Positions 34,905-64,000 of a stretch of DNA of 64,000 bases are shown here, in pieces (positions within the stretch are counted from its first letter, which is position 1; each line of letters opens with the position of its first letter). The notes beneath the pieces were generated by a model that did no database searches, had not been told where the DNA came from, and saw nothing but the letters and a program-made list of their open reading frames with translations. Position numbers and translations under genes: made by a program. Source of the stretch: an uncultured Eubacteriales bacterium (GTDB taxonomy: Bacteria > Bacillota_I > Bacilli_A > RF39 > UBA660); contig CAJMAC010000001.1 of the NCBI GenBank assembly GCA_905211265.1, forward strand, positions 2,412 through 66,411, read 5' to 3'.

Positions 34905-35043
34905 AATATCACCTATTTAATTATATGTTAAAAGTATATAAAAATAAGTACTATTTTACAAGTACTCAAAAGAATTGCATTTAGATTTAAATCATTTAGA
35001 AGATTCAAAGTTAGAATTATTATATGTAAAAATCTATTACACT

Positions 35044-35077
35044 TGAAAAAAGCCAGTGCCTTTTAAGCACTAGCTTT
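35044..35077 (-). terminator. Rho-independent terminator after mraY
   Basis: Minus strand AGCTAGTGC-ttaaaag-GCACTGGCT followed by TTTTT. Confidence 0.65.
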
Positions 35078-35140
35078 ATCAAATTTCTTTATCAAAATTT
35101 TTGGTCACACCCACTATTTGACAAAGAACCATTTATTTCT

Positions 35141-36133: not shown

Positions 36134-36221
36134 TATAACACTTCCTTTTTCCTATATAATATTATAGCATAAATATAGCAATTTATTTTTAACAAAAAAT
36201 ATACTTTACACTTATTTGTCA

Positions 36222-41524: not shown

Positions 41525-41526
41525 AA

Positions 41527-42207
41527 TTATCTTACCCTCTCATCACTAACTATTTTTCCGTCATCAATAGTAATAATTCTATCAGCATTAAGTGCTAATT
41601 CATGATCATGAGTAATCATTATAATAGTTTGTTTATATTTCTTGTTAGATAATTTTAGTAATTCAATAATATCCTTACTTGCTTTACTATCTAAGTTTCC
41701 TGTTGGCTCATCTGCTAAAAGTAGGGCAGGTCTATTCATTAATGCTCTACCTATTGAAACTCTTTGTTGTTGTCCTCCAGATAATTCATTAGGTAAATGA
41801 TTTACTCTATTAGATAATCCTAATGTTTCAATAAGTTCTTTTAAATATGTTTCATCTGGTTTTTTACCATCTAATAAAATAGGCAATGTCATATTTTCTT
41901 TTACATTAAGTATTGGTATTAAATTATAAAATTGATAAATAAGTCCTACTTGCCTTCTTCTAAATATTGCCAAATTAGTTTCATTAAGATTATAAATATC
42001 TTCCCCATCAATAATAATTTTTCCACTAGTAGGTTTATCTACTCCACCAAGTAAATGAAGTAATGTACTTTTACCAGAACCTGAAGCCCCTACTACTGCA
42101 ACAAATTCTCCTTTTTCTACACTAAAACTTACATCATCTAGTGCTTTTACTAAGGTATTACCTTTACCATAGTTCTTTTTTAAATGTTCAACTTTAAGTA
42201 TTTCCAT
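41527..42207 (-). CDS. ABC transporter ATP-binding protein (MacB/LolD-type)
   Basis: GASGSGKST, LSGGQQQRVSIGRAL, LLLADEPTGNLD. Confidence 0.95.
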   Translation of the reverse strand: MEILKVEHLKKNYGKGNTLVKALDDVSFSVEKGEFVAVVGASGSGKSTLLHLLGGVDKPTSGKIIIDGEDIYNLNETNLAIFRRRQVGLIYQFYNLIPILNVKENMTLPILLDGKKPDETYLKELIETLGLSNRVNHLPNELSGGQQQRVSIGRALMNRPALLLADEPTGNLDSKASKDIIELLKLSNKKYKQTIIMITHDHELALNADRIITIDDGKIVSDERVR

Positions 42208-42230
42208 AATTTTCTTCCTTTCAATAAATA

Positions 42231-42285
42231 ATTATATAATATCAATATGACTATAAAGTGAATTTTAAGTGACAATTTAGTCACA
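42231..42285 (-). promoter_or_regulatory. Candidate response-regulator-dependent promoter of the ABC operon
   Basis: Minus strand TGTGACT / TGTCACT / ATTCACT / AGTCATA start exactly 11 nt apart (plus-strand 42279, 42268, 42257, 42246) and abut a TATAAT (plus-strand 42231-42236). Confidence 0.4.
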
Positions 42286-42288
42286 TAA

Positions 42289-43515
42289 CTAATAATTATT
42301 CTTAAATAACTTAATTATAAAAGTAGTACCTTCATTTTCCTTAGATTTAACACTTATATTACCATTTTCATTTTCAATTATTTTCTTAGACATATTAAGT
42401 CCTATACCAATACTTTCTTTATTACTCATTCCTTTATAGAATCTTTCAAATATATGAGGTAAATCTTTCTTAGATATTCCACATCCATCATCACTAATAC
42501 TAATCATTGTATAAAGTGGATTATCACTACAAACTATATTAATATTACCATTTTCCAAAGTATGTTCCATTGCATTTTTTAATATATTAATCAAAGCTTC
42601 CGTAGTCCAATTAACATCAACATTAACTTTAATATCATTACTACATGATACATTTAAATTGATATTTTTAAGTTCAAGAGGTATTTTTATAGGTTCAATA
42701 GTTTTATTAATAATATTAATTAATTTTACTCTTTCTAAAATTAATTTTTCACTACCACTATCCAATCTAGACATTTTAAGTAAAGACGTAATTAACCATT
42801 CTATTCTTTCTAATCCTTTTTTACTCTTATTTAATAATTCTTTCTTTAAAGATTTATCTAACTTATCATCATATAATAACTCATTAATAACATACATACT
42901 TGTTAAAGGTGTTTTAAGTTGATGAGATATATCAGATAAAGTATCTTGCAAATATATTTTATCTTTTAAAGATAATTCATTTTGTTCTTTTAATTTTATT
43001 GTCATTTTATATAAATCATTCTTTAAATTACTAATATCTCCTTCAGAATATTCTCTAATATCCATATTATATTTATTATTTAAAATATCATTAGTATATA
43101 TTGATAATTTTCTTATTTTATTATAAATTTTATTAATATAAATAATTAAAATACTAAATACAATAATTATTAATATAGAAATATAAATAATATTATATTT
43201 TCTAATAGTTTTATTAATATAACTATTATCATTTAAGTAATCTACTGTATCTAGTCTATCTAATCCATATTTATTTAATATTTCATAAGACTCACTTTTA
43301 CTTATATCATGATTAATAATACCATCAATTACTTCATTTTCAAGTTCAGGATGTTTACTAATAATAGAATCTATTATATATAAATTATTTTCTATAATTG
43401 CTTCTTTATAAGTTTCATAACTATATTTATTAAGTAACAATATAGAAACAATACCTATAATTAATACAATTATTTCTATTAATATTAATTCTCTTACTTC
43501 CTTATTCTTTAACAT
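42289..43515 (-). CDS. Sensor histidine kinase
   Basis: Two TM segments, H-box SHQLKTPLTS, N box, G boxes DDGCGI / GIGLNMSKKI. Confidence 0.9.
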   Translation of the reverse strand: MLKNKEVRELILIEIIVLIIGIVSILLLNKYSYETYKEAIIENNLYIIDSIISKHPELENEVIDGIINHDISKSESYEILNKYGLDRLDTVDYLNDNSYINKTIRKYNIIYISILIIIVFSILIIYINKIYNKIRKLSIYTNDILNNKYNMDIREYSEGDISNLKNDLYKMTIKLKEQNELSLKDKIYLQDTLSDISHQLKTPLTSMYVINELLYDDKLDKSLKKELLNKSKKGLERIEWLITSLLKMSRLDSGSEKLILERVKLINIINKTIEPIKIPLELKNINLNVSCSNDIKVNVDVNWTTEALINILKNAMEHTLENGNINIVCSDNPLYTMISISDDGCGISKKDLPHIFERFYKGMSNKESIGIGLNMSKKIIENENGNISVKSKENEGTTFIIKLFKNNY

Positions 43516-43517
43516 AA

Positions 43518-44195
43518 TTATTCTCCTACTACATAACCAATACCACGAACTGTTTTTAATATTTTAGGATTAGTAGGATCATCCTCTATCTTCTCTCTAA
43601 TTCTTTTAATATAAACAGTTAAAGTATTATCATTAACATAATCACTATTAATATCCCATATATCTGCTAATATCTTTTCTCTTGTTATAACAGTATTTTG
43701 ATTCAAAGCAAAAGTTAAAAATATTTTATACTCTAACGCAGTAAACATCATATCTTTATTATTCTTAAATACCTTAGCCTGTTTTAAATCAATAATAATA
43801 TCTTGTATTTTAATAATATTAGAATTATTATTACCATATCTTCTTAAAGTAGCATTAATTCTAGCAAGCAATTCTCTAGCTTTAAATGGTTTAGTAATAT
43901 AGTCATCTGCTCCCATATCTATTCCCATTACTATTGAAGTTTCTAAATCATTCGCAGTTAAAAATATAATTGGATAATTATTTATCTTTTTTATTTCTTT
44001 AAATAAATCAAATCCATTATAATCAGGTAAATTAACATCTAATAAAATTAAATCAATATTCTTATCTAATTTTATTTTATCTAATGCCTCACTACCTGTT
44101 GTAGTTAACTTCACTATAAAATTTTCTTGTTCTAAATAATACTTTAATCCAATACCAATTGCATCATCGTCTTCAATTATAAATATCTTTTTCAT
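43518..44195 (-). CDS. OmpR/PhoB-family response regulator
   Basis: Receiver domain (DD..ILLDVNLPD..KP) plus winged helix ..LKTVRGIGYVV. Confidence 0.95.
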   Translation of the reverse strand: MKKIFIIEDDDAIGIGLKYYLEQENFIVKLTTTGSEALDKIKLDKNIDLILLDVNLPDYNGFDLFKEIKKINNYPIIFLTANDLETSIVMGIDMGADDYITKPFKARELLARINATLRRYGNNNSNIIKIQDIIIDLKQAKVFKNNKDMMFTALEYKIFLTFALNQNTVITREKILADIWDINSDYVNDNTLTVYIKRIREKIEDDPTNPKILKTVRGIGYVVGE

Positions 44196-45681
44196 TATTT
44201 ACCTCTATTTTACTTAATATTTTTTCTATTTTATTTTTTATTTCATCATTATATTTCTTACTGTTTAATATTTTATCTTTATAATAACTAATCTTAGATA
44301 AATTATCCTTATTTTTATCTTCTAAATACTTATCTATATAAATATTTAATAACTCTATACTAGACTCTATTACACCATGATTACTAGATTCATCGTATAA
44401 TGTTATTGCTTTTTCTATGTCTTTTTCTATACCTAATTCATAATTACCGCATTGATAAAAATATTTAGCTAAATTATATTTACTATAATACTCTAATAAA
44501 TAAACAGGTACATTTGTAGATAAATTATAATAATCAAATGCTAATTTCATATTCTTTTCTACATATATTCCCTTACGATATAATTCTCCTAATTTATTAC
44601 AAGCCCAACTTTCTTCCTTTAAAGCACTTTTCATATAATAATCAAATGCTTTCTTATAATCTTTCATATCTTCATATATTTTACCTAAGTTATTATATGA
44701 ATATACATAGTCTTCCTTAATAGCTATATTAAAATATTCTATTGCTTTAGATTTATCAATATTTAAATAATATAATCCTAATTTATTTAACGCTGCAACA
44801 CTACCAAGTTCGCTTGCTTTAGTTAAATATTTTAATGCTACTAATTTATCTTCTTCACTACCATTACCTATTTTATTAGTAAGTAACATTTCTCCAATTA
44901 ATAAACACGCTCTTGGATGATTATTTAATGAAGAAATCAATAAATACTCATATGCTTTATTATATCTAGGTATACCTGTTATTTCACCCTTATATTCCAT
45001 ATAACCCATTTCAAAACAAGCATAAGCATTTTTTTCTTTTACTAACCTTTTCAATTCATATATATAATTAACACCATCTTTAAAATTAAGCATTAAAAAT
45101 TTTTCTAAATCATTAATAGATATATTAGTTTTATTTAAAATATTTTCAATTGTATCTTTAATAATATCATCTTCATTTATAGGTTGCTTATTATCTAAAA
45201 TAATATAGAAAAGCATTTGAATAATACATTCAAAATATTTATTATTTTTTATATAATTATTTAATTTAATAGTAAACTCCCCATTAATATTTTTATCATT
45301 CTTAGCAATATTATATAATTTCTTACATAATTTAATTAATAATTCATCTTTATTTATATCTTCATAAGAATATAAATTATCAATACTACCATGTAATAAG
45401 TTGATAAGTTCATTAATTAAATTAATTAAATATAATTTATCTTTCTTATATTTATCTTTATATTCTAAATATTTATTTTTATATTTCATATTTATACTTC
45501 GATAACCTACACAATAATTATTAATTAAAGTATCTGATAATGTATCATCACTAAATAATATCATACATATATTAGTTTGATTAGTAAAAACTTTATTATA
45601 AGAAATATTTTTAAACACTCTACAAAAATTACCTAAAGATAAATAATTATCATTATCATTCATTTTAATATACTTTTTCAT
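44173..45681 (-). CDS. Cytoplasmic Sel1/TPR-repeat protein with an uncharacterised about 240-aa N-terminal domain
   Basis: C-terminal half carries at least 5 Sel1-like repeats (..A..YL.KASELGSVAALNKLGLYY.., ..AFDYYMKSALKEESWACNKLGELY..). Its stop overlaps the response-regulator start by 23 nt. Confidence 0.75.
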   Translation of the reverse strand: MKKYIKMNDNDNYLSLGNFCRVFKNISYNKVFTNQTNICMILFSDDTLSDTLINNYCVGYRSINMKYKNKYLEYKDKYKKDKLYLINLINELINLLHGSIDNLYSYEDINKDELLIKLCKKLYNIAKNDKNINGEFTIKLNNYIKNNKYFECIIQMLFYIILDNKQPINEDDIIKDTIENILNKTNISINDLEKFLMLNFKDGVNYIYELKRLVKEKNAYACFEMGYMEYKGEITGIPRYNKAYEYLLISSLNNHPRACLLIGEMLLTNKIGNGSEEDKLVALKYLTKASELGSVAALNKLGLYYLNIDKSKAIEYFNIAIKEDYVYSYNNLGKIYEDMKDYKKAFDYYMKSALKEESWACNKLGELYRKGIYVEKNMKLAFDYYNLSTNVPVYLLEYYSKYNLAKYFYQCGNYELGIEKDIEKAITLYDESSNHGVIESSIELLNIYIDKYLEDKNKDNLSKISYYKDKILNSKKYNDEIKNKIEKILSKIEVNNEKDIYN

Positions 45682-45749: not shown

Positions 45750-46385
45750 TTACATTTCACTTACATTAACTAATCTAGATATATAAACAACTTGCAAATT
45801 ATCATTAAAATTACTGCAAGTAACAAGAACAAGTGAAGTAATATTATTAATATTATGTAAAGTAATACTACCTGTTTTTTCTACTTCGTATATATCAATT
45901 AATTTATATAAATATTTCGACTTATTATAAATAATTTCTATTTCATCATCAATATTTAACTTATATAATTTATTAAAATAAGATACCCTATCATTACCAG
46001 AATGCGCTGCTAGAATTAATGTTCCATTTTCTACATCAGGCATATTTGAATTACTAATTAATTCTATATTCTTATCTACATTGTTCATTGGATTATCTAT
46101 ACCATAAAATCCTTGTTCTAAATTAATCTTAGGTATAGAAATAATCCCTAAATAATTATTTGCTTCTTCATTATCAATAGTATTTTCATTATCAATAGAT
46201 ACTATATTTACTTTAATCTTACTATTACTAATATAATTATCAACTTTATTTTTATCTAACATGTTTAAATAATAATCATAAACACTATTATAAGTAAATA
46301 ATGTAATACCAATTACTAAATTAATAACACTAATTATAAATAATTTATTACTTTTTCTGTGTCTTATCATATATAATACCTCCAA
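45750..46385 (-). CDS. Sortase-family transpeptidase
   Basis: N-terminal TM, catalytic His (TLILAAHSG), Cys (LVLVTCS) and Arg (VYISRL). Probable start is ATG 46370. Overlaps the adhesin 3' end. Confidence 0.85.
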   Translation of the reverse strand: MEVLYMIRHRKSNKLFIISVINLVIGITLFTYNSVYDYYLNMLDKNKVDNYISNSKIKVNIVSIDNENTIDNEEANNYLGIISIPKINLEQGFYGIDNPMNNVDKNIELISNSNMPDVENGTLILAAHSGNDRVSYFNKLYKLNIDDEIEIIYNKSKYLYKLIDIYEVEKTGSITLHNINNITSLVLVTCSNFNDNLQVVYISRLVNVSEM

Positions 46386-48165
46386 TACTTAAAATAATAA
46401 TTATTAAACCAATTAACTCTATAAACTTATAATCAAATAAAAAAGTATTAGGTACTTCAATTATCATATCATTAGTCATAGATAATTTAATATATTGTTT
46501 ATCTTTATCAATTTTAAAATTAATTACTTCATTATTATTTATATATCCATTAGAACTTTCTACTTCTTTTAGATAATAAGTTCCAAGTGGTATATCATTT
46601 AATATAATCTTACCTAATTCATCAGTACATCCTTTATAAAATAAATTATCATTATAATATACTTCAATTAAAGTATCTTTAATAGGTTTATTAGTATTAC
46701 TATCTAATTTAATAAATTCTAAGTTACCCTTAGGCAAATAATTATTAAAACTTAACTCTTTTAAAATAGTTTTAGTATACTTATCTTTATATTTAATTTC
46801 AAATTCATAAATATTCTTATCAATAATATTATCATTACTACTAGATAATTCCTTTATATAATATCTTCCTATTTCTAAATTATCTAAAATACCTTGTCCA
46901 TTACTATCAGTAATAATATTACCTACTAAATTATTCTTTTTATATTTAATAGAGTCTCCAACCGAAATATCATCATTTGCATATACACCATACTTAACAT
47001 CTTTTAAATGTATCTTATCATAAGTATAATCATCATTTAATTTTTCCCCAATCTTATTAATAATTATCTTACCCTTAACTCTTTCATTAGTAAAATTAAC
47101 TGAATATATATTATCAGAATTAACTACTGTATCTTTTGTAATACTTATATCTAATTTATTTTTATTCCATAAATAATTATCTAACATTTGATTTTCTACT
47201 TCATAAATAGAATAATTACCCAATAAATATTTATTTAATATAAAATATCCTTCATCATTAGTTTCAAATATACATTTACTATTTTCACATAAATATTCAT
47301 CATTATCATTATTTTTAATTTTAAACTTAATTCCTTTTTTCTTTATAATTTGGTTAGTTTCACTATCTATTTTATTTACTTTTATTCTAGCACCATAAGT
47401 ATTAATATTTATTATACTTTCTATTAAATCATTATTTCTTAATATAGCTTGTTTCTGACTATAATTATCATTACCCTTAAAAATCATTGTCGTTTTATTA
47501 TCATATTTTTTCTTTTCTAAAATTATTTTAGATTTACCTATTTTTTTAGAATTAATATGTAATTCATTATCAACAATATTTACTTCATTTCCATCATTAT
47601 CTTTAACTATATACATATCTAATACATTAGAATTATCCTTTATAACAAGTTCATTATCATATAATATATCATAACTATTATTATCAAAAGATGGCTTAGT
47701 ATAATGATTATTAACAAGTCTCATTATTTCATTCTTTTCTTTTTCTATATCTATTAAATTACCATATCCATATTGTTGATTTCTTAATTCAACAGTTTTA
47801 TCCGTAGTAAGATACCACATTAACATTTGTGTAGCCATATGATATAAATTAGTATTATGCCCTGGATAAAGATAGCCATATCTACTTATTAATTCTAACT
47901 TTTTAATTATTTCTTCGCTAAATGGTAGATTAGCATCTTCAAGATAACCCCATGTAGTAATTTGTTTACCAGGTTCAATACAATATGCAACTTCTCCATC
48001 AATATAATAATAAGGAAATCTATTAGACATATAAACTCCATTACCAGATATTGAAAAAAAATAATTATCTTCATGACTTATACTAAGTGTATAACTACTT
48101 CCTTTAACTTTATTACTAAATAAAATAATAAATATAACTAACAATATCATACATTTCTTTTTCAT
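46348..48165 (-). CDS. Surface adhesin: putative thioester (TQXA-like) domain plus Cna-B/SpaA-type Ig-like domains, non-canonical VPNTF sorting signal
   Basis: Signal peptide. YCIEP (Cys62 codon 47980-47982) and ATQMLMW (Gln113 codon 47827-47829). Cna-B-like GKIIINKIG.. and GNLEFIKLD...TDELGKIILNDIPLGTYYLKEVESSNGY. C-terminus is VPNTF (46441-46455), a TM segment and DKTQKK. Confidence 0.7.
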   Translation of the reverse strand: MKKKCMILLVIFIILFSNKVKGSSYTLSISHEDNYFFSISGNGVYMSNRFPYYYIDGEVAYCIEPGKQITTWGYLEDANLPFSEEIIKKLELISRYGYLYPGHNTNLYHMATQMLMWYLTTDKTVELRNQQYGYGNLIDIEKEKNEIMRLVNNHYTKPSFDNNSYDILYDNELVIKDNSNVLDMYIVKDNDGNEVNIVDNELHINSKKIGKSKIILEKKKYDNKTTMIFKGNDNYSQKQAILRNNDLIESIININTYGARIKVNKIDSETNQIIKKKGIKFKIKNNDNDEYLCENSKCIFETNDEGYFILNKYLLGNYSIYEVENQMLDNYLWNKNKLDISITKDTVVNSDNIYSVNFTNERVKGKIIINKIGEKLNDDYTYDKIHLKDVKYGVYANDDISVGDSIKYKKNNLVGNIITDSNGQGILDNLEIGRYYIKELSSSNDNIIDKNIYEFEIKYKDKYTKTILKELSFNNYLPKGNLEFIKLDSNTNKPIKDTLIEVYYNDNLFYKGCTDELGKIILNDIPLGTYYLKEVESSNGYINNNEVINFKIDKDKQYIKLSMTNDMIIEVPNTFLFDYKFIELIGLIIIILSIGGIIYDKTQKK

Positions 48166-51914: not shown

Positions 51915-52136
51915 TTATTTTAATACCTCAATAAATTTTTGTAACATATTAATATCATCGATCATCTTATTAATTCTATCACTTGGTTTTAATTTATATT
52001 TATCTTTTGCAGCATCTTCAAAATTTTTAAATTCCATTGGATCTCTATTTAATATTTTATACCATATAGAGTTTTCTCTAATAAATCTAATATAATTAGG
52101 ATTACTATTTATTTTAAACTGTGTTTCTAATGTCAT
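51915..52136 (-). CDS. YlbE-like small protein
   Basis: 73 aa. ..NYIRFIRENSIWYKILNRDP..FKNFE.. resembles the YlbE family. Conserved ylbD-ylbE-rsmD neighbourhood. Confidence 0.5.
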   Translation of the reverse strand: MTLETQFKINSNPNYIRFIRENSIWYKILNRDPMEFKNFEDAAKDKYKLKPSDRINKMIDDINMLQKFIEVLK

Positions 52137-52507
52137 TAATCTTCAAAACTCCTATAAATTGGTCTTGGAGTATATGCAGTAGTTTTTGTTTTAGCACCAT
52201 CTTTTATAAATAATCCTGAGAATAAATCAACTGCTTTTTGTAATGAAGTAATACCTTCTTGTACTTTATCTACATCCATATTTTTAACCATTTTAACAAT
52301 ATCTCTCACTGAACTTATTGAACTTTTTTTAGTTTCTGTTACTTCTTCATCTGTATTAGATAAATATTTACTCCAAGCATTATTATCTTCACCATATAAA
52401 TCATATATTTCATAAAATCCTTGCCATGTCATACTACCATCTTTTACATAATTAATTAATTTAGGATTCTTTTTTACATACATTTTAAATTCATCAATCT
52501 TAGCCAT
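52136..52507 (-). CDS. YlbD-like putative spore coat protein
   Basis: ..IDEFKMYVKKNPKLINYVKDGSMTWQGFYEIYDLYGEDNNAW.. resembles the YlbD family. Stop and start abut the ylbE-like gene. Confidence 0.5.
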   Translation of the reverse strand: MAKIDEFKMYVKKNPKLINYVKDGSMTWQGFYEIYDLYGEDNNAWSKYLSNTDEEVTETKKSSISSVRDIVKMVKNMDVDKVQEGITSLQKAVDLFSGLFIKDGAKTKTTAYTPRPIYRSFED

Positions 52508-55917: not shown

Positions 55918-56673
55918 TTATTTACTAACTGGAAGAACATTTATACTTCTTGCTACATCAAGTAATTCATTTTTACTAATTACATCACTTATTACATAAT
56001 ATTCTACACCATTACTTATCCAATTAACAGAGTTATCATTAACTACTGCGATTGAATCAGACATTAATTCAAGTTCACCATAAGTAGGAATAATTTCATG
56101 TTCGCTTGGCATACTAACAGTTTCTTCGATTAACATAAATGATGAATCTCCATCAAAAGTAAGTATCATTCTTTCTCCATCATTTTTATCTACTTTTTCT
56201 TTATTAGTAAGATATGTATTACTAGGTAAATACATTGGATATATTATATCTTCTAATTTAGCAGTCTCCTTTGTTTTTTCTTCATTTATTTCATTATTCT
56301 TAACTTCTTCTTTAGTTTCAGTAATTAAAGTATTTAATTTAAAATAATCATCTTTAAATTCACTATTTAAGTCAATCTTATTAAATTCCATTTTTATTTG
56401 TACATTATTATTAGTATCTAATACTTCAACTTTCTTAATATCAATATTCTTATCAATATATATTTTTTGATTAACTAATTTTTGATTGTTTGGATAATTA
56501 ACTTTGGTAGTTATAACATATCCATCATTAACTTCTTCATAAATCTTATTAGTATCTTCCTTAATATCTTCGAGCAATGAACTAACTAAATAACTTTGAG
56601 AATTATTATATGGCCAATCACTTTGAAATTTAAAACTTTTATTTAAACTTGGAGTAACAACATAAACTATCAA
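55918..56673 (-). pseudogene. ydcC: 3' fragment of a LolA-like sporulation lipoprotein gene (YdcC family), 5'-truncated at the mobile-element junction
   Basis: The frame opens only 5 codons before a TTG. There is no SD, no ATG and no signal or lipobox. The sequence starts mid-domain (..IVYVVTPSLNKSFKFQSDWPYNNSQSYLVSSLLEDI..), which I recognise as the YdcC/LolA-like core. The recombinase stop is 21 nt away. Confidence 0.6.
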
Positions 56674-56694
56674 AGGTTTAATTTTTTTCTATTT

Positions 56695-58284
56695 TTAATA
56701 ACCATTTTCAAATGGTTTAAACTTATAATATATATCTACATTTTTATTTTCATCTATAACTATCTTATCTATGATACTAGATAATAATTGTACACTAGGC
56801 TTTTTCATAGATAAGTATTCCTTTATAATATTATCATATTTCTTGTTATTATCAGTTATATTATTCTTTATATTATATATTTTAGTTTTTATTTCTGCTA
56901 TCTCGTTTTGTTTAGTGATTGTTTCTTCAGTTATTCTATTACACATTCTTTTATACATTTCTAAATCAATAATACCCTCTAATTTATCATTGTATAAGTC
57001 TTCTTTCTTCTTACTACTACATTCAACATCATTTAATAACTTTTTCAATCTTATTTCTAACTCATTTAATATTTTTTTAGTTTTATCACTATTGGCTAAT
57101 ACATTTTTTAAATCACTAGCCTTTAAATATTTTTTACACATTTTCTTTATCTCTTTTAAAACTAAATCTTCTAACTCATAATATTTAGTATTATGTGGAG
57201 TGCATAAATCATATTTTTTATGTTTAGCCCAATAATTACAATTACCATAACATCTTGTAACTTCACCTTTCTTTTTGGTATTAACTTTTTGAAGTCTAAA
57301 ACCTATTGTATGTCCACACTCTTTGCAATACACAAAACCTTTTAACAATATATCTTGTGTATTTTTACCTTGATTTTTGTTCCTATTATATATGTCTTGT
57401 GCTAAATTAAAAGTCTCTCTATCAATAATAGCAGGACATTTACCCTCACAAATTATCCAATCTTCTTTTTTGGGTCTTATTCTTTTTTTTGACTTATAAC
57501 TAGGTTTCTTTGACCTACCTTGTGTCAAATCACCAACATATGTAGGTAAAGTCAACATATCACTTATAGTCCTATTATTCCATATACCATAAGCAGTTGA
57601 CTTCATACCAACATTAAGTCCTTTGTATTCGCTAGGAATAGGAATTTTTTCATCAGTTAGAATTCTAGATATCTCACATATTCCTTTGCCACTAACAAAT
57701 AAATCAAATATTTTTTTAACAATTTGTGAAGCCTTTTCATCAACAATTAATTTGTATTTATTATTAGGGTCTTTTTTATAACCAAATGGAGCAGTTTTTC
57801 CTAAAAAATTGCCTTGACTTCTTTTATTATATACACTTGCTTTCATCTTTTTAGATGTATCTCTTACGTGTTTTTCATTAAAGAAACATTGTATAGGTAT
57901 CATTTCATTAGATGTATTATACTCATCAAATGTATCAACATTATCAAGTATAGCAACATACCTTATTCCATTTTCATAGAAATAATCTAAATATCTTAAT
58001 TGTTGTCCCTCATTTCTACCAAATCTCGATAAATCTTTAGTAATTACCATATTAATACGTTTAGCCTCAATATCTTCAATTAATCTATTCCAACCAACCC
58101 TATCAAATTGTGTACCACTAACACCATCATCTACATACTCATCTATATATAATAAATTATTATCCCTTATATATTTATGTATGATGTCCCTTTGATTAGA
58201 AATACTACCACTTTCACCTTTTAACTCATCTTCACGAGATAATCTTAAATAAATACCTACTTTGTATGTTTCACTACCTACCAT
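56695..58284 (-). CDS. Large serine recombinase (TnpX/SpoIVCA/SprA type)
   Basis: VGIYLRLSREDE..SGSISNQRD catalytic N-terminus, recombinase domain, Zn ribbon CKECGH..C.GNC, coiled coil and DUF4368-like C-terminus. ATG 58284 follows GGAGG (the track start is upstream). Confidence 0.92.
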   Translation of the reverse strand: MVGSETYKVGIYLRLSREDELKGESGSISNQRDIIHKYIRDNNLLYIDEYVDDGVSGTQFDRVGWNRLIEDIEAKRINMVITKDLSRFGRNEGQQLRYLDYFYENGIRYVAILDNVDTFDEYNTSNEMIPIQCFFNEKHVRDTSKKMKASVYNKRSQGNFLGKTAPFGYKKDPNNKYKLIVDEKASQIVKKIFDLFVSGKGICEISRILTDEKIPIPSEYKGLNVGMKSTAYGIWNNRTISDMLTLPTYVGDLTQGRSKKPSYKSKKRIRPKKEDWIICEGKCPAIIDRETFNLAQDIYNRNKNQGKNTQDILLKGFVYCKECGHTIGFRLQKVNTKKKGEVTRCYGNCNYWAKHKKYDLCTPHNTKYYELEDLVLKEIKKMCKKYLKASDLKNVLANSDKTKKILNELEIRLKKLLNDVECSSKKKEDLYNDKLEGIIDLEMYKRMCNRITEETITKQNEIAEIKTKIYNIKNNITDNNKKYDNIIKEYLSMKKPSVQLLSSIIDKIVIDENKNVDIYYKFKPFENGY

Positions 58285-58343
58285 AATTACCTCCTTTTTT
58301 AGTGGTAGCAAAACCATTTCAATACACTTATATTATACCATTT

Positions 58344-58448
58344 TTAGCCTTGTTTTACTAGAGTTTCATTGTAGTAAAGCACTAGAAATTGTTCTATAAT
58401 TTCTTGAAATGATTTGCCTTTTTCATCAAAATAACTTGTCACTTTCAT
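58344..58448 (-). CDS. Small ORF (34 aa) upstream of the recombinase
   Basis: Not in the track. AGGTGA SD 7 nt before the ATG; MKVTSYFDEKGKSFQEIIEQFLVLYYNETLVKQG. Confidence 0.3.
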   Translation of the reverse strand: MKVTSYFDEKGKSFQEIIEQFLVLYYNETLVKQG

Positions 58449-58476
58449 ATAACAATCACCTACTAAAACATATGAA

Positions 58477-58818
58477 TTACACATTGAATTCTTGCTTAAT
58501 AATTTTGTCGTTTTCGGTTTGCAATTGAATTCTTATATTTTTAGACTTTTCTAAAGCATTAATTACTCTTTCATCTACTTGCATAAATCTTTTGCCACCA
58601 ATAGTAACCTCATAAATAGCATTAAATGGCTCAAAATTTTTCATCAATGAATTATATTCATCATAATTGAAATTTAGAGTTTTCATAATTTTATTTATTG
58701 TTGCCCTAGTTCTGTGTTTATCCCACAAACGTAAAATTCCATCATTATAATCAAAAGTACATAATATTTTTAGAAATAGTATCAATGAATGATTATAAGT
58801 ATACGTTCTTTTACTCAT
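58477..58818 (-). CDS. Hypothetical protein of the element
   Basis: 113 aa. Overlaps the upstream ATPase gene by 8 nt. Confidence 0.5.
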   Translation of the reverse strand: MSKRTYTYNHSLILFLKILCTFDYNDGILRLWDKHRTRATINKIMKTLNFNYDEYNSLMKNFEPFNAIYEVTIGGKRFMQVDERVINALEKSKNIRIQLQTENDKIIKQEFNV

Positions 58819-59848
58819 ATCTATTCACCTCACTTTCTACATTGCAACTTTGTACATTGCTATCTAGTGGGCTACTTAAAGCCCAATATGTTCTGCTATT
58901 TTTTTTGATTTGATGTATTTTATTATTTTTATTTAAAATACTTCTTGCTCCATCAAAAGTACGTTTACTAAAACCACCTATTTTACATAAATCTTGAAGT
59001 TCATTTGCAGTTATTTCTTTTTTACTAGCAATACACCCTAATATAAAGTTTTTTGCATTTTCAAATTTTGTATTAATATCTTGGCTTATTAACTCATCTG
59101 CATTAACTTCTCCTCTATCCTCAAGCCATTCAAGACCATTTTTACTTATTTTATAACTCAAACAATGCCCCTCTTTTGCAACATTACTTGTTGTATGTAT
59201 AAATAACCTTTCATCGTTTCCAGTATCTTTTACTACCATTAACATAGACCTTGCAAAGCCTACAAAGTCTATAGAGCCAGCACCTTTATATATTGCTTTC
59301 GTTTCATTGCCCTTTTTTAAATGTTGTACAAGAACAATAGCAACATTATATTGTTCTGCAAGTATTTTTAGAGGTGCTAAAGCATTTCTAACTTGTACCA
59401 TAGAATTACTATCACCATCACCCATATAGGCTTGTATAGGGTCTATAACAACTAATACAGGCTTTTGTTCTTCGATTAATTTTTCTAATTTTTCTAAACT
59501 ATTAAAGTAAAGTTTTTCTTGCTTTTCATCTACACAAAATACTCTTGTAGTATCTGCTTTTTGCTTTTCAAAACGTTCTTTTAATGAATATTCTATAGGG
59601 TCATCACTATTTTGAAATATGACGTTACCTACATCAAATTTTTCACAACTTAAAGGCTTATAATCTCCCCTAGTTATTCTAGAAATAATATCTATTAACA
59701 TAAATGTCTTACCACACTTTGGGTCACCTTGAACAATAGATACCATTCCTTTTGGTAGATATGGAAACCATAACCAATCAATTTGTTTAGTCTCCACATC
59801 TGAATACTTAATAAAGTATTTATTTTCATTTATTTGTTTTTCTTTCAT
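58811..59848 (-). CDS. RecA-fold AAA_25/RepA-like ATPase with C-terminal wHTH-like region
   Basis: Walker A GDPKCGKT, Walker B VLVVIDP, LVQHLKKG. ATG 59848 follows AAGGAGAG (the track start is a GTG at 59902). Confidence 0.75.
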   Translation of the reverse strand: MKEKQINENKYFIKYSDVETKQIDWLWFPYLPKGMVSIVQGDPKCGKTFMLIDIISRITRGDYKPLSCEKFDVGNVIFQNSDDPIEYSLKERFEKQKADTTRVFCVDEKQEKLYFNSLEKLEKLIEEQKPVLVVIDPIQAYMGDGDSNSMVQVRNALAPLKILAEQYNVAIVLVQHLKKGNETKAIYKGAGSIDFVGFARSMLMVVKDTGNDERLFIHTTSNVAKEGHCLSYKISKNGLEWLEDRGEVNADELISQDINTKFENAKNFILGCIASKKEITANELQDLCKIGGFSKRTFDGARSILNKNNKIHQIKKNSRTYWALSSPLDSNVQSCNVESEVNRYE

Positions 59849-59963
59849 TTTATCTCTCTCCTTTTTTAGAGGACTAGTCCTTTTCTTTGTCGACATATAC
59901 ACTATAACACGAGGTTTTTATTATCTTCCGAAACTATGATATAATATAGGTGAGGTGAATAAA

Positions 59964-60479
59964 ATGATTGATTATAAAAGTGAAGAATTTAGAAAATTTA
60001 AATTAGCAAATTTACGTCGTTACAATATTTGGGAAGAAGATATAAAAAAAACACCTATGCTTTCAATAAAAGAATTTAATAAATATATGGAAAATGAAGA
60101 ATATATTGATGAAGAAATTCTTGATGATGGTACGGCTCGTCCTACTATTTTAATCAAATATAAAAACAATTTAACTAAATTAATTAAGTTATTAGAAAAA
60201 GAATTTAATATTAAACATTCAAAAGGTGGAAGAAAACCTAAATTAACTATTGAAGATAAGTTAAGAGCAACTGTTGAATATTTAAGTACTAACAAATCTT
60301 TTTTCGAAATAGCCAAAGAATATAATATACACGAAAGTAATATGTATGAAGCAATATTATGGGTTATAGATACACTTACCAAACAAAAAATAATTATTAG
60401 TGAAAAAGATGAAAATAACAGAATAATTGCTTTTGTTAATTGCAAAAAATTATATTTTTTAGATATTAAAAAGATGTAA
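59964..60479 (+). CDS. HTH protein related to the N-terminal HTH of IS5/Harbinger-type DDE transposases; no DDE domain
   Basis: GRKPKLTIEDKLRATVEYLSTNKSFFEIAKEYNIHESNMYEAILWVIDTL resembles HTH_Tnp_4. The ORF ends about 40 aa later. ATG 59964 follows AGGTGAGG. Confidence 0.55.
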   Translation: MIDYKSEEFRKFKLANLRRYNIWEEDIKKTPMLSIKEFNKYMENEEYIDEEILDDGTARPTILIKYKNNLTKLIKLLEKEFNIKHSKGGRKPKLTIEDKLRATVEYLSTNKSFFEIAKEYNIHESNMYEAILWVIDTLTKQKIIISEKDENNRIIAFVNCKKLYFLDIKKM

Positions 60480-60592: not shown

Positions 60593-61000
60593 TTAACTTT
60601 TTTTCTTACTATTCCAAATTTTAAATCTAATATCGTGTAGTATTTGTATTATTTCTGCTAGTGCAAATATTCCTAGTGAAACACCATCATATGTTAGCCA
60701 AATTGTCATCAAAGAACTGAATTCTATCTCATCATATTCATTTTGCCCTAGTATAAAACCTAATATAAAACCTAACACAATTATTATCCAAGCAATTACT
60801 TTTAATATACTAGAGATAGTATTTTTTTCTTGCATTATTTTTTCTAATCTCATATCAAGATTTTCTGTATTGTATTCTTTTAAATTATTACAATATGGAC
60901 AGCCTTTTTCTAAATCTTTTACTTCTCTACCACAATTAACACATTTAATCTTTTTACCATTTTTATAATCTTCTAAATTATCAAAAAAATCATCTTTCAT
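60593..61000 (-). CDS. Zinc-ribbon membrane protein
   Basis: CVNCG..(13)..CPYCN followed by two TM segments. Confidence 0.6.
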   Translation of the reverse strand: MKDDFFDNLEDYKNGKKIKCVNCGREVKDLEKGCPYCNNLKEYNTENLDMRLEKIMQEKNTISSILKVIAWIIIVLGFILGFILGQNEYDEIEFSSLMTIWLTYDGVSLGIFALAEIIQILHDIRFKIWNSKKKS

Positions 61001-61577
61001 TTTTTACCTCCAATTTCTTTAGTTTGTTAAGTCCATATAACCTAAAATATAATATTACTGGTATATAATATATTGTTTCTATAATACATTTAATTACTAC
61101 ATCAAACTTAATTATTCCATAAGTTGACTTATTAATAATAGAACCAATTAAGCATATAAAGTATACTAGTATGCTTACTATACACATTATATTAGGCTTA
61201 ATAATACTTTTATTTTTAGAATAGAATGTCATTCCTAAACTAATAATCAATGTAACAAACAATGGTATATAGTTAGATAATATTAGCCTAATACTAATAA
61301 AATTACCACTAATAAATAATTTTCCAACATATGTACATCTTATTAATAATACAACTATAAAGTTTATAAATACTATTGTATTCAATACATTTAATTTTAT
61401 ATGACTTTTAGAAATTACCAAAATGTAATATAAAAGTAATATTAAACAACCACTAGTAGCAAAATCAAATAAATTTACAACTATGGTATAAGTTTTAAAA
61501 GTACTAATAAAAGATACAACAAGTAGTATTATGGAGATTATAACCAGTAATTTTGGGTTATCAAAAATTTTTTTCAT
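60990..61577 (-). CDS. Polytopic membrane protein (about 6 TM)
   Basis: Wholly hydrophobic 195 aa. 11-nt overlap with the downstream zinc-ribbon gene. Divergent from the XRE gene. Confidence 0.6.
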   Translation of the reverse strand: MKKIFDNPKLLVIISIILLVVSFISTFKTYTIVVNLFDFATSGCLILLLYYILVISKSHIKLNVLNTIVFINFIVVLLIRCTYVGKLFISGNFISIRLILSNYIPLFVTLIISLGMTFYSKNKSIIKPNIMCIVSILVYFICLIGSIINKSTYGIIKFDVVIKCIIETIYYIPVILYFRLYGLNKLKKLEVKNER

Positions 61578-61679: not shown

Positions 61680-61937
61680 ATGGAAAATAAAAGCCACTTC
61701 CACGACAACTACTATTATTATGACATTGTTAGGAAAAACATTAAAAAGTACAGAAAAACGGCTAATCTTACACAACAAGAGTTAGCCGATAAAATAGAAG
61801 TATCTATGCATTATATTTCACAAATTGAAAGTGCAAATCCTAATAAATACTTTACTCTAGTAGTTATTGGAAGAATTGCCGACGCATTAAATATTGATAT
61901 TAGACAATTATTTGATGATGTCGACACTACAAAATAG
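61680..61937 (+). CDS. XRE-family HTH regulator (element repressor candidate)
   Basis: IKKYRKTANLTQQELADKIEVSMHYISQIESAN. Confidence 0.85.
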   Translation: MENKSHFHDNYYYYDIVRKNIKKYRKTANLTQQELADKIEVSMHYISQIESANPNKYFTLVVIGRIADALNIDIRQLFDDVDTTK

Positions 61938-62259: not shown

Positions 62260-63432
62260 TTAGTTATTTGATGATATGATATCAAACTTTCTTTCTTTTG
62301 TATTTCTAGTAAACATTTCTTGTAGTTCTGTTTCATCGATTATTGATTGACAAAAATATATTGCATTTAATAATCTTAATACTTCAACTTTTTTATTTAA
62401 ATACCTTACTCCATGTGAATTTAAATGCCTAGATAAAGTTTTTGTTTTTGACATTTTAAAATTTTTTTCATTAGCGTATAGTTTTAAATAAAAATTATTT
62501 AAAATATCTACCTTTATATACATTTCATAACTAAATTCATCAGGTGGGCAACTATTTATATAATTCAACATACTTTCAATAATTTTATACGATAAGTGTT
62601 GATTTTCACTATTTGGTTCTAATAATTGTAACGTTAAACCATCCAACATTGTTATTAATGATGTGATACAAATTGCATAATCTTCTCTAAAATATGCATT
62701 TTCTACTTGTTTTACTAATTCTTTTTTATCCTTACTTTTGCATTGTTTTTTTATCTTACTAAATAATCTTTTTGTTCTATTCACATTAAAATATTTTAAA
62801 ATATACTCATCAAATTCTTTCTGTGTAGTATATTTAGACAATTTTTGAATATTATTATATTCATATTCAAATGGTATTACCCAATAGAATTGGTCTAGTA
62901 TCTTACTATCTAATCCACTTAGCCTAGGTAAACTCTTGAAATCAATAGTTTCAAATATTTTTCCAATAGAATTTAAAGAACTACTAACGTTTTTAAAAAC
63001 ACTATTTATATCTAAAGCATCAATAATGCTCTTAACACTATTTTCTAAATTATAAGCAGTATTTATATTAGCAAAAATGTTCAACTTGTTCATAAATTCA
63101 AAATTTATATCTTTAATAGTATTATAAAGTTCAGTATTATATAGAGGATTATTTATTGTTTTTATTTGTTCACTTAAAAAATTGGTTTTCTTAATAATAT
63201 TTTGAGTATAATTAAATTGACTTTTATAATTTTTTATAAATTGCTCCAAGGGTGATTGGTATTTTAAAACATCAAAACTTTTAAAAAGTTCACTCTTTAA
63301 AGGATTATCAAAAGGAAAAAGATTAGCAGATAATTTTACTTGTTTGGCAACTAAATTAGTTAAATTATTTTTTGGTAAATCTTCTTTAACTTCAATTGAA
63401 GTTTTTAAATCGTTATTATCTTTATTACACAT
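62260..63432 (-). CDS. Hypothetical protein with C-terminal HEPN-like four-helix region (Rx4H)
   Basis: 390 aa. The last about 150 aa are predicted helical, with LSRHLNSHG (R335-H340, bases 62413-62430) between the third and fourth helices. The functional call is tentative. Confidence 0.55.
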   Translation of the reverse strand: MCNKDNNDLKTSIEVKEDLPKNNLTNLVAKQVKLSANLFPFDNPLKSELFKSFDVLKYQSPLEQFIKNYKSQFNYTQNIIKKTNFLSEQIKTINNPLYNTELYNTIKDINFEFMNKLNIFANINTAYNLENSVKSIIDALDINSVFKNVSSSLNSIGKIFETIDFKSLPRLSGLDSKILDQFYWVIPFEYEYNNIQKLSKYTTQKEFDEYILKYFNVNRTKRLFSKIKKQCKSKDKKELVKQVENAYFREDYAICITSLITMLDGLTLQLLEPNSENQHLSYKIIESMLNYINSCPPDEFSYEMYIKVDILNNFYLKLYANEKNFKMSKTKTLSRHLNSHGVRYLNKKVEVLRLLNAIYFCQSIIDETELQEMFTRNTKERKFDIISSNN

Positions 63433-63446
63433 AATAAATTTATACC

Positions 63447-63971
63447 CTATTTTACTCCTAAAAACAAAGGCAATAATGCTGTTGCCACATCTACACCTTT
63501 ATCAGCAACCCAAGTCAAAAAAGTTTTCAATTTTTTCCATTTATTTCTCTTTGTGTCTTTTGATTTTACTATCGTCTCTATTTCATCAATTTTTGATAAT
63601 ATTTCTTCTAACTCATTATCATTAAGATTATCCATATTTTGTATTGTTTTTCTTGCTTCTTCAAACGACATATTTATATTTGTAATATTTGTATTAGTGT
63701 TTGTATTAGTGTTTGTCATATTATTATTAAAAATTGGTTGGCTATTTTTTCTATCTTCAAAATTTTTAAAACCATTTGCTTTAAAGGAAATTAATAATGA
63801 TTTAATTCTCTTAAAATTAATATCAATAGAGCTTTGCCCAATATCTTCATCATAAAAATCTCTGTTTTTATAATATCCATATAATCCATTACCAAAATTA
63901 TTAATCATATTATTATATTTTGAAGTTAACTCAATATAGAAATCCTTCTTTTCTTCATAAGTCATAGACAT
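63447..63971 (-). CDS. Hypothetical protein with (TN)n low-complexity linker and amphipathic/hydrophobic C-terminus
   Basis: 174 aa. NMTNTNTNTNTNITN is encoded by a 12-bp tandem repeat (63688-63716). C-terminus is KWKKLKTFLTWVADKGVDVATALLPLFLGVK. Confidence 0.55.
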   Translation of the reverse strand: MSMTYEEKKDFYIELTSKYNNMINNFGNGLYGYYKNRDFYDEDIGQSSIDINFKRIKSLLISFKANGFKNFEDRKNSQPIFNNNMTNTNTNTNTNITNINMSFEEARKTIQNMDNLNDNELEEILSKIDEIETIVKSKDTKRNKWKKLKTFLTWVADKGVDVATALLPLFLGVK

Positions 63972-64000
63972 AGTATTATCCAGTTTTTCTAAGTCATCAT

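Follow-up and report, generated by a model that had tools for sequence, protein, structure and literature searches.

The stretch analyzed here (the window, 64,000 nt) holds, on its minus strand, the 3' part of a ydcC (ssdC) gene that is interrupted by a genomic island carrying a large serine recombinase (LSR), and the island runs past the right-hand end of the window. The ORF called at 55918-56673(-) consists of the ydcC 3' part plus 14 nt of the element's end. What the initial annotation had read directly from this ORF was confirmed in full: it starts with TTG, its frame opens five codons earlier, after an in-frame TAG (56689-56691), and inspection of its sequence revealed neither a Shine-Dalgarno sequence nor a signal peptide. 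A gap of 21 nt separates the TTG from the LSR stop codon (56695-56697). The features of the locus are as follows.

55918-56659 (-): 3' part of ydcC/ssdC, codons 95-340 plus stop; 97-100% identity to residues 95-340/343 of the intact alleles P0002, P0003 and P0121
56660-56679 (-): attR, comprising the element-side arm AAACCTTTGATAGTT and the shared core TATGT (56660-56664), with the crossover GT at 56660-56661; assigned by attL/attR/attB comparison
56695-58284 (-): LSR, 529 aa, the island integrase; Pfam Resolvase, Recombinase and Zn_ribbon_recom; PHROG 95 integrase (4.6e-92); in 12/12 complete elements
58332-58340 (-): sigma-A-type extended -10, TGGTATAAT, ahead of the LSR gene; a consensus match only
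58344-58448 (-): 34-codon ORF, MKVTSYFDEKGKSFQEIIEQFLVLYYNETLVKQG, candidate recombination directionality factor (RDF); always directly upstream of the LSR gene (12/12 elements)
58467-58510 (-): conserved non-coding block with GACAAAA (58503-58509), a TCAAGAA-like sequence and CATATGTT (58467-58474), followed by the ribosome-binding site GGTGA; from the alignment of 12 elements
58477-58818 (-): 113-aa ORF, cargo or replication module; in 6/12 elements, always downstream of the AAA_25 gene; no family match
58811-59902 (-): AAA_25/RepA-DnaB-like P-loop ATPase, 345-363 aa; Pfam AAA_25 (1.4e-24), PHROG primase/helicase families; in 6/12 elements
59955-60479 (+): HTH_Tnp_4-type small DNA-binding protein; Pfam 7.9e-07, phrog_17599
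60593-61577 (-): two overlapping cargo ORFs, one of 135 aa with a zinc-ribbon-like N-terminus and one encoding a 195-aa multi-pass membrane protein; common to L009, L012 and L014; no informative family
61680-61937 (+): Xre/cI-type HTH repressor, divergent from the rightward operon; Pfam HTH_3 (3.2e-10), PHROG transcriptional repressors; in 8/12 elements
62260-63432 (-): 390-aa cargo ORF, common only to L011; no Pfam, PHROG or PADLOC match
63447-64000 (-): C-terminal end of a cargo ORF of 280 aa, truncated by the edge of the window; complete at L001 2385-3227
Equivalent of window 64425-64709, L001 1965-2249 (-): ydcC 5' part, 94 codons, with signal peptide and lipobox, MKKVLLSILLVLTLLLTGCGKK...DEGVYV; overlaps the shared core

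The split gene and its attachment sites

When compared with intact homologues of 340-345 aa, the ydcC fragment aligned only to residues 95-340 (99% and 97% identity) and therefore starts mid-domain; in a structural model, the break would fall within a beta-strand of the LolA-like N-domain. The full gene encodes 340 aa, of which the window keeps the C-terminal 246 codons and lacks the 94-codon 5' part. The missing part was recovered from a second contig (L001), which is identical to the window across 18,083 nt (0 mismatches) and runs on for another 2,673 nt: 425 nt past base 64000 it carries the 94-codon start of the gene, complete with the lipoprotein signal peptide that the initial annotation had predicted there. 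The insert measures 7,769 bp and lies between codons 94 and 95 of ydcC; the window covers its right-hand 7.3 kb, and the island ends at the equivalent of window position 64428. Joined in silico at the core, the two parts yield an in-frame, scar-free protein of 340 aa that is the commonest intact allele, P0121, and rejoining by the same in silico procedure gave full-length genes in all 12 complete elements.

The split gene is a YdcC/SsdC-family lipoprotein gene whose product is RseB/MucB-like, a placement made from precomputed Pfam assignments and from the fold rather than from profile scans. Pfam family PF27667 ('YdcC') is assigned to the intact alleles P0002, P0003 and P0121 (for the last marked 'weak'), and the AlphaFold2 model (pLDDT 73.6) is predicted to adopt a two-domain, RseB/MucB-like fold with a LolA-like N-domain. 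In a Foldseek comparison of this model with the PDB, the top 15 matches were RseB and MucB (~330 columns, E about 1e-10), followed by LolA over the N-domain. Sequence searches of NCBIfam and the PDB gave only a sub-threshold and a marginal match, respectively, to GerS. The YdcC-family, LolA-like identity first proposed for the fragment thus holds. The gene lies in its normal neighborhood, cdaA-ybbR-DUF378/GT2; B. subtilis ydcC, unlike this gene, does not adjoin cdaA-ybbR and sits in the ydcABC region. Gene callers record the 3' fragment as a 251-aa protein (P0001), which makes it an annotation trap.

Comparison of attL, attR and attB placed the crossover at a GT dinucleotide, which is the sole sequence common to attL and attR in 12/12 complete elements; there is no long target duplication, and across species just this GT is shared. 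In the window's own island, the short identical core that had been anticipated is TATGT, at 56660-56664. Across species, 12 complete elements and 4 partial ones have their crossover at this GT. The reconstructed attP is an imperfect inverted repeat, CCTTTG-N20-CAAAGG, with the GT at its center, and the LSR stop codon is 15 nt away from the attR arm. The four junctions, given as the sequences to either side of the join, are:

attL: GAAGGTGTATATGT joined to CTAGACACAC
attR: TTGATAGTTTATGT joined to TGTTACTCC
attB: GGTGTATATGT joined to TGTTACTCC
attP: GATAGTTTATGT joined to CTAGACACAC

Conspecific contigs without the element provided colinear empty sites, 98.5-99.5% identical over 4 kb, in which the gene is uninterrupted and followed by the same downstream neighbors as the ydcC 3' part. 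The split junctions were seen on ~10 independent contigs that come from more than one sample and assembler; metagenomes with the split allele include ERZ28577980 (SAMEA2147114), ERZ28661410 (SAMEA4525186), ERR209454 and ERR1711764. The gene is cleanly split by an element with a large serine recombinase, as had been proposed. The attB site coincides with the most conserved protein stretch of YdcC, GVYVVTPSLNKSF. Exact and degenerate scans of viral, genome and JGI metagenome contigs returned no attP junction, a result that is neutral on a free circular form. We also considered CATATAAT as a diagnostic motif, and rejected it as too frequent in a genome of 23% GC.

The recombinase unit, its cargo and its hosts

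All three Pfam domains of the LSR pass their gathering cut-offs. The protein starts at an ATG (58284) that follows GGAGG and is kept in relatives, and it carries a conserved YLRLSRED motif near its N-terminus. Against NCBIfam it gave weak matches to CcrB and XisF, far under cut-off; because the best of these, CcrB, reached 99 bits against a cut-off of 900, the LSR is judged not to be a Ccr orthologue. TGnTATAAT or TATAAT precedes the LSR gene in 9/12 elements. A simple sigma-70 scan, in which the number of sites was no higher than in shuffled sequence, misses the extended -10 of the window's LSR gene because there is no -35.

No genes other than the LSR gene and the 34-codon ORF are common to the 12 complete elements. 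Conservation of the small ORF is at the level of the protein, its third-position changes being synonymous, and 24 of 35 more distant loci, mostly in a sister clade, have a homologue upstream of the LSR gene. Searches of Pfam and PHROG matched it to no family; its position and size make it a candidate RDF.

The islands form a family of 3-8 kb elements in which the unit of 34-codon ORF, LSR gene and attR is fixed and the remaining cargo varies. Close relatives of the LSR were found in 15 species-representative genomes, and in 14 of these the contig reaches past the LSR gene; in all 14, the ydcC 3' part follows at the same codon. Because the break point recurs in every informative genome, the split is not due to chance. 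Adding the species of the window and a further metagenome species brings the family to at least 16 species. Where the YdcC proteins of two hosts share only 48-63% (~50%) identity, their LSRs still share 98-99%, a disparity that indicates recent horizontal transfer. Within the window's species, the split allele P0001 is on ~10 contigs, as compared with 166 contigs (198 index blocks) for the identical intact protein P0121; the split allele is both rare and recent. None of the split copies shows decay (16/16), and we considered whether intact halves signal selection; given a recent insertion and mobile elements, they are uninformative on this point. In ~30 species, an SsuA-like ABC-transporter gene is split by elements of a sister clade that have homologues of the small ORF and the LSR. 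This target is a vegetative gene with a sigma-A-type promoter, and the success of the family therefore does not depend on developmental rescue.

PADLOC and PHROG searches of the cargo ORFs on the window's island gave no defense or structural assignment. Other members of the family carry (i) KAP NTPase and ApeA-HEPN defense genes, (ii) a sortase with surface proteins, or (iii) an amylase, and one sister-clade element carries a HipA-like kinase. Neither a relaxase nor a type IV secretion system was matched by Pfam or PHROG among the island ORFs. The AAA_25 ATPase is probably the replication helicase of the excised island.

The hosts have the appearance of spore formers: their SpoVD and SpoVE pass the NCBIfam cut-offs, they possess YlbD and YlbE, and the ydcC promoters are of the sigma-E type. 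In 12/12 hosts this promoter, KMATAWW-N13/14-MATAnAAT, fits the sigma-E consensus perfectly. In B. subtilis, ssdC is a sigma-E-dependent mother-cell gene (PMC7769602), and mutants that lack it sporulate at 3.7-13.7% of the wild-type efficiency (PMC7769602, PMC4703394). The protein described here resembles B. subtilis SsdC in its Pfam family (YdcC), its RseB/MucB-like fold of two domains, its size (~340 aa) and its anchoring to the membrane at the N-terminus, and both genes have a sigma-E-type promoter; the anchor itself is a lipobox (LLTGC) here and a transmembrane segment in SsdC (PMC7769602).

Mobility and the timing of excision

We favor, with a probability of roughly 0.55, the reading that this is a plain mobile island: the disruption of ydcC would be a side effect of att-site choice, and excision would be tied to the mobility of the island rather than to a developmental switch of the host. 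The LSR would be produced from a sigma-A-like promoter that belongs to its gene and would recombine attP with attB, and because attB lies in a conserved stretch, hosts whose YdcC proteins are ~50% identical would all be targetable. Integration is predicted to break the beta-sheet of the N-domain and leave the gene inactive; in B. subtilis, an ssdC-null mutation gives rounder forespores. Excision would restore the gene without a scar and would require the 34-aa protein as directionality factor; both this role and the timing of excision are ones that we infer. The islands travel horizontally among uncultured, very AT-rich gut Bacilli; this transfer is shown by the data, as are the anatomy of the island, its att sites, the empty sites, the family of islands and the identity of the target gene.

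A number of observations count against a plain island. Its target is a sigma-E mother-cell gene, and an unrescued knockout should be costly, because loss of ssdC cuts sporulation efficiency in B. subtilis; the hosts are spore-former-like and their 16 split copies undecayed; the conserved block ahead of the small ORF contains CATAnnnT and does not read as a canonical sigma-A promoter; and one element (L022) has a sigma-E-type match ahead of the small ORF. In addition, every tested LSR element in a mother-cell gene, namely skin, SPbeta, vfbin, vrin, gin and yin, excises during sporulation (PMC4191935, PMC5595907, PMC6957869, PMC10747680).

These points lend some weight to a developmental alternative, which we regard as possible though tentative. 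Here, the 34-aa RDF would be switched on in the mother cell, LSR and RDF would excise the island, and ssdC would be rebuilt in time for its sigma-E-dependent expression; the forespore would keep the island, so that carriage is free of cost. Such a scheme suits a target that, in all 12 hosts, has the promoter of a mother-cell gene (PMC7769602). It also suits the rdf-int-attR layout, which is the same as that of the SPbeta sprB-sprA-attR unit (PMC6957869), the small size of the candidate RDF, comparable to the 42 aa of GirX (PMC5595907), the scar-free, in-frame rejoining of the ydcC halves in silico, and the undecayed state of the split copies in 16 species. The small ORF may, in addition, also be read from the repressor-controlled rightward operon, which would place it under dual control, as is sprB.

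The non-coding block upstream of the small ORF is retained even where the gene further upstream changes. Its GACAAAA is what we take to be a SpoIIID-like core, and its CATAnnnT fits the -10 of a mother-cell sigma factor, but it is equally a weak sigma-A -10 (TAnnnT) and is kept in the sister clade, whose target is a vegetative gene. The TCAAGAA at the -35 has no ATA core, unlike every host ydcC promoter, and there is no AC at the sigma-K -35 position. A strict regex scan for sigma-E and sigma-K consensus sequences upstream of the small ORF or the LSR gene returned nothing in 11/12 elements; in L022 alone, a good sigma-E-type match lay immediately ahead of the small ORF. No sigma-E/K promoter that is conserved across the family was recognized ahead of the small ORF or the LSR gene. 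Two further points weigh against the developmental alternative: (i) the split allele is rare and recent, so its intact halves say nothing on selection, and (ii) the attP junction was in none of the scanned collections. The initial annotation had the island excising in the mother cell and so rebuilding the gene, and this part of its account found no support in the analysis: to the promoter results are added the sigma-A-type -10 of the LSR gene, a sister clade inserted in a vegetative gene, and a split allele that is a mobile minority. Nothing in the sequence points to scheduled excision, and programmed mother-cell excision is, as matters stand, unproven.

A broader form of the developmental alternative is somewhat less probable. 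In it, ssdC/ydcC would be an unrecognized target of programmed sporulation rearrangement in uncultured, genome-reduced gut Bacilli, brought about by a minimal, highly transferable unit of a 34-aa RDF and an LSR. The unit would have radiated onto ssdC, onto the SsuA-like transporter gene and possibly onto a collagen-like spore-surface gene. Excision in the ssdC clade would occur in the mother cell only, and the island, carried cost-free in the spore germ line, would shuttle defense, adhesion and metabolic cargo between genera.

That the island is a phage satellite or defective prophage, phage-derived and helper-packaged, with the LSR as a phage integrase, is improbable. The Xre repressor, divergent from an operon with the primase/helicase-like AAA_25 gene, does resemble the lysogeny and replication modules of satellites, and the best PHROG for the LSR is 'integrase'. 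However, PHROG matches on the island were of integrase, repressor and helicase type only, with no capsid, terminase, tail or packaging genes; the LSR has no relative in IMG/VR and is at most 33% identical to any GenBank phage (tblastn); and the AAA_25/Xre module is absent from half of the family, including members of 3-4 kb. On these grounds we rejected a prophage reading, and the prophage-like character first ascribed to the element was not borne out. A decaying pseudogene or an assembly artefact, with a functional ydcC elsewhere in the genome, is what the start-less fragment might suggest from the window alone, but this is highly improbable given that the same junctions occur on ~10 independent contigs and in 15 other species, that both halves match the commonest intact allele in protein sequence, that the gene is in its normal neighborhood, and that the 64-kb window holds no second copy.

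Relation to known elements

Staphylococcal SCC elements, with their ccrA, ccrB and ccrC LSRs and the helicase cch, are likewise small cargo-shuttling islands that are LSR-integrated at one conserved site in a conserved gene, and some have a replication helicase beside the recombinase genes. They differ in that SCC inserts at the 3' end of rlmH, which stays active.

A close parallel among sporulation elements is offered by gin, in gerE of B. cereus ATCC 10987: both are non-prophage islands in a mother-cell sporulation gene, both pair an LSR with a very small accessory ORF (GirC and the 42-aa RDF GirX in gin), both have a short common core whose central dinucleotide lies within inverted repeats, and both occur as near-identical copies in different strains, pointing to horizontal spread, with no transfer genes of their own (PMC5595907). 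In contrast to gin, which has ~31 genes, three recombinases and an RDF gene that does not adjoin the integrase gene, the ssdC island is 3-8 kb long, carries a single LSR gene that the small ORF directly precedes, and targets ssdC/ydcC; moreover, the sporulation-specific excision of gin was demonstrated experimentally, whereas the ssdC island is known here from sequence (PMC5595907).

SPbeta (in spsM; SprA/SprB) and skin (in sigK; SpoIVCA/Skr) of B. subtilis and skinCd of C. difficile resemble the ssdC island in having an rdf-int-attR unit at one end of the insert, an integrase expressed apart from the RDF, a target under a mother-cell sigma factor, and an excision that rebuilds the ORF precisely, the last for the ssdC island in silico only (PMC4191935, PMC6957869, PMC5025042). 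They are, however, prophages or defective prophages of 14-134 kb, and their RDF genes have demonstrated sigma-E/K(+SpoIIID)-dependent promoters, whereas none is recognizable in the ssdC island (PMC4191935, PMC6957869, PMC5025042). Nor is the ssdC-island LSR closely related to the recombinases of these elements, having no more than 33% identity to any phage record. The yin element, in yabG of Clostridium botulinum V73, is also a strain-variable LSR element in a sporulation gene whose attB is conserved in strains without the element, but it is prophage-like, comes from one isolate only and is excised at all growth stages (PMC10747680); the ssdC-island family, by comparison, occupies one site in at least 16 species.

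The initial annotation knew of no description of ydcC as such a target, and we likewise found no paper in the searched literature that brings ydcC/ssdC together with intervening elements; the island is a known kind of element at a target not described in that literature. Should its excision prove developmental, ssdC would join sigK, spsM, spoVFB, spoVR, gerE and yabG as a rearranged mother-cell gene, and the phenomenon would extend to uncultured, very AT-rich gut Bacilli, a group whose sporulation is not known to have been investigated. Independently of when excision takes place, the family provides a compact serine integrase, a 34-aa protein as candidate directionality factor, and well-defined natural attB and attP sites in many variants, all of them useful for studies of integrase specificity and directionality. 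Its small LSR islands carry cargo between hosts with ~50% identical YdcC by way of an invariant protein motif. Closed relatives of the hosts have genomes of ~1.5 Mb.

The interrupted ydcC gene

The ORF at window 55918-56673 (-) begins with TTG; an in-frame TAG at 56689-56691 leaves only five codons of open frame ahead of that TTG. The ORF has neither a ribosome-binding site nor a signal peptide, and the stop codon of a co-oriented large serine recombinase (LSR) gene lies 21 nt upstream. A homology search returned about 6,700 relatives. The closest full-length homologues (340-345 aa, 97-99% identity) align with the fragment from their residue 95 to the end, indicating that, as the initial annotation had held, it is the C-terminal 72% of a longer gene. 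The exact 251-aa fragment is present on about 10 public metagenome contigs. The 5' half, predicted to lie beyond base 64000, was located on L001, a 99.7-kb human gut contig that is identical to the window throughout an 18,083-nt overlap and extends 2,673 nt past its end:

equivalent of window 64425-64709 (-), ydcC 5' part, encoding MKKVLLSILLVLTLLLTGCGKK...RNDEGVYV

This part comprises a lipoprotein signal peptide with lipobox and 94 codons, and ends exactly where the fragment starts; the insert is 7,769 bp long. Rejoined in silico at the core shared by the two junctions, the halves are in frame, as had been anticipated, and yield a 340-aa protein identical to P0121, which occurs on 166 contigs (198 blocks in the index). 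The split allele is thus a young variant of the most frequent intact allele, and in the minority. Automated gene calling turns the start-less fragment (P0001) into a 251-aa protein starting 'MIVYV', whose first codons derive from the element; similar truncated 'proteins' in databases are P0006, P0042, P0057, P0077, P0088, P0104 and P0110.

Intact alleles fall in the precomputed Pfam family PF27667 ('YdcC'). An AlphaFold2 model (pLDDT 73.6) best matches full-length RseB and MucB (E about 1e-10, about 330 columns), with an N-domain that matches LolA, and this predicted fold bears out the YdcC-family placement. In the model the gene is broken within a beta-strand of the N-domain, and neither part would therefore be expected to fold by itself. 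KMATAWW-N13/14-MATAnAAT stands upstream of the ydcC 5' part in each of the 12 host species studied (e.g., TCATAAA-N14-CATACAAT in locus L015) and fits the textbook sigma-E consensus. The B. subtilis protein SsdC (formerly YdcC) has been described with the same RseB/MucB/LolA-like likeness (PMC7769602); its gene depends on sigma-E for transcription in the mother cell, and its deletion gives rounder forespores and a sporulation efficiency of 3.7-13.7% (PMC7769602, PMC4703394).

The host, an uncultured 'Bacilli bacterium' of 23% GC, probably sporulates, since the window encodes SpoVD and SpoVE, both above NCBIfam equivalog cut-offs, as well as YlbD and YlbE. The spoVD-mraY-spoVE cluster lies at 33819-38132 (-), with SpoVD scoring 740 bits against a cut-off of 688 and SpoVE 461 against 448.8; at 30215-31504 (+), a SpoVB-like gene of the MurJ family falls short of its cut-off. 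Homologues of ylbD (YlbD_coat) and ylbE (51915-52507, -) are found 3.4 kb beyond ydcC on its downstream side; their presence, along with sigma-E-type promoters before ydcC, points to spore formation in this uncultured lineage of 23% GC. GC content falls to 17-18% at 14000-18000, where an LRR/internalin-like protein of 778 aa is encoded (15731-18067); close by is a Listeria-Bacteroides-repeat protein (21576-23234).

Recombinase, attachment sites and island family

The genes adjoining the fragment are:

56695-58284 (-), LSR, 529 aa; Resolvase, Recombinase and Zn_ribbon_recom domains
58344-58448, immediately upstream of the LSR, 34-codon ORF, MKVTSYFDEKGKSFQEIIEQFLVLYYNETLVKQG

All three LSR domains score above Pfam cut-offs, confirming the recombinase call. 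Scanning one genome per species, we found an LSR relative in 52 genomes, and 15 of the loci shared at least 60% LSR identity. In 14 of these 15 the ydcC 3' part, from residue 95, follows the LSR (the remaining contig stops inside the LSR gene), and in ten the gene's 5' part, up to residue 94, is found 3-8 kb upstream. Together with one element each from the species of the window and another metagenome species (L009), these ten bring the complete elements to 12, with lengths of 2,957-7,832 bp; the protein collection has more truncated proteins that start at the same YdcC residue. LSRs that are 98-99% identical occur in hosts whose YdcC proteins are only 48-63% identical, which argues that the islands move horizontally.

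Conspecific contigs carry ydcC uninterrupted in the same neighbourhood (cdaA, ybbR, DUF378, ydcC, GT2) and are colinear across the junction, with 98.5-99.5% nucleotide identity over 4 kb. Both the intact relatives and the short core (TATGT) expected at the two junctions were recovered:

attB, GATGAAGGTGTATATGT/TGTTACTCC
attL, ...GGTGTATATGT/CTAGACACACAAAGG
attR, AAACCTTTGATAGTTTATGT/TGTTACTCC

In the reconstructed attP, the GT of the core is at the centre of an inverted repeat, CCTTTG-N20-CAAAGG, as expected of a serine integrase site. Because attL and attR have only GT in common in every species, GT is taken as the crossover dinucleotide. The position of attB on an invariant YdcC block (G91 V92 Y93 ... 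P97 ... N100-P110) would account for the island's host range.

Clustering of all ORFs left only the LSR and the 34-codon ORF common to the 12 elements. [quoted passage not shown] The closest described system is gin itself, in gerE, likewise not a prophage. Intervening-element targets named in the literature consulted are sigK, spsM, spoVFB (spoIVFB in one paper), spoVR, gerE, yabG and kamA, with spoVK named in the abstract of a preprint on SPbeta-like phages; in the literature searched, with subscription journals outside its scope, ydcC/ssdC was not linked to an intervening element or integration site. What is new here is the target, the compact island family and the candidate RDF.

Cargo and related recombinases

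The remaining cargo is variable. The window island has an Xre repressor and an AAA_25/RepA-like ATPase, besides membrane proteins and ORFs without assigned function; in other members the cargo is KAP NTPase and ApeA-HEPN defence genes, an alpha-amylase, or sortase with surface proteins. The window island also recalls SCC elements, in that it is an LSR island that shuttles cargo and has a helicase. A 280-aa cargo ORF common to the window island and L011 only contains a low-complexity TNTNTNTNTN run (63447-63971, -). In L014, a ydcC island of another species, 3907-6633 encodes a KAP-family NTPase (PADLOC PDC-S20, 1e-46) and an ApeA-like HEPN protein, that is, anti-phage defence cargo in a ydcC-island chassis. 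The L015 and L018 islands have their own sortase and surface-protein cargo. Elsewhere in the window, a SpaA-type pilin (605 aa) and sortase (45750-48165, -) are followed by a two-component system and a MacB-type ABC exporter (38975-45681).

A sister LSR clade (42-47% identity to the island LSR; loci L026-L060) has a homologous small ORF (MKIVNVFNENGKTLQQIMEEFL...) and interrupts, at a single fixed residue, the gene for an SsuA/NMT1-like ABC-transporter substrate-binding lipoprotein. Examples are:

L036, 9292-13292
L032, 9842-12083

Sister-clade cargo includes a HipA-like kinase. Two further LSR relatives (47% identity; L057 11578-12792 and 1377-2900, L025 11591-13470) border an oppositely oriented collagen-like (GPT-repeat) gene, whose presumed other half adjoins a GT2-TPR glycosyltransferase, a layout recalling BclA-type exosporium glycoprotein loci; this gene may be another spore-surface target. 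L025 carries two LSRs in tandem, the second of 508 aa.

Mobile island or developmental switch

Weighing the evidence on both sides, we favour, at a probability of about 0.55, a mobile island whose att site happens to fall in ssdC. Programmed excision in the mother cell, as initially proposed, is a serious but less probable reading. It draws on the target being a mother-cell gene whose loss is costly in B. subtilis, and on the fact that every tested LSR element in mother-cell sporulation genes excises during sporulation. None of 16 split copies shows decay, and all 12 complete ones rejoin in silico to full-length ORFs; however, the split allele is rare and young, so intact halves are uninformative on selection. 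The DNA in front of the small ORF stays conserved whichever gene adjoins it; it has no sigma-A promoter, and its CATAnnnT has GACAAAA about 28 nt further upstream. Against this, the -35 (TCAAGAA) has no ATA core and is wrong by the hosts' own sigma-E standard, AC is missing where sigma-K would need it, upstream of the small ORF only one element (L022) has a match to the strict consensus, and CATAnnnT fits a weak sigma-A TAnnnT equally well. This motif, with the same RBS arrangement, also precedes the homologous small ORF of the sister clade, whose target has a sigma-A-type promoter and is split in about 30 species (gut 'Bacilli/Tenericutes' MAGs), and at least two of those hosts also have an intact ydcC. 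Moreover, the LSR has a sigma-A-type extended -10, and the attP junction was found in none of three collections scanned (viral, genome and JGI metagenome contigs). Satellite and artefact readings together take up the small remainder; the island has no phage structural genes, IMG/VR holds no LSR relative, and LSR identity to GenBank phages is at most 33%.

A short-leader layout, 'CATATAAT - about 6 nt - AGGTG(A/G) - about 5 nt - ATG', occurs at window 34927, 52530 and 30191, before spoVE, ylbD and the SpoVB-like gene, and resembles that preceding the island's 34-codon ORF (58451-58474).
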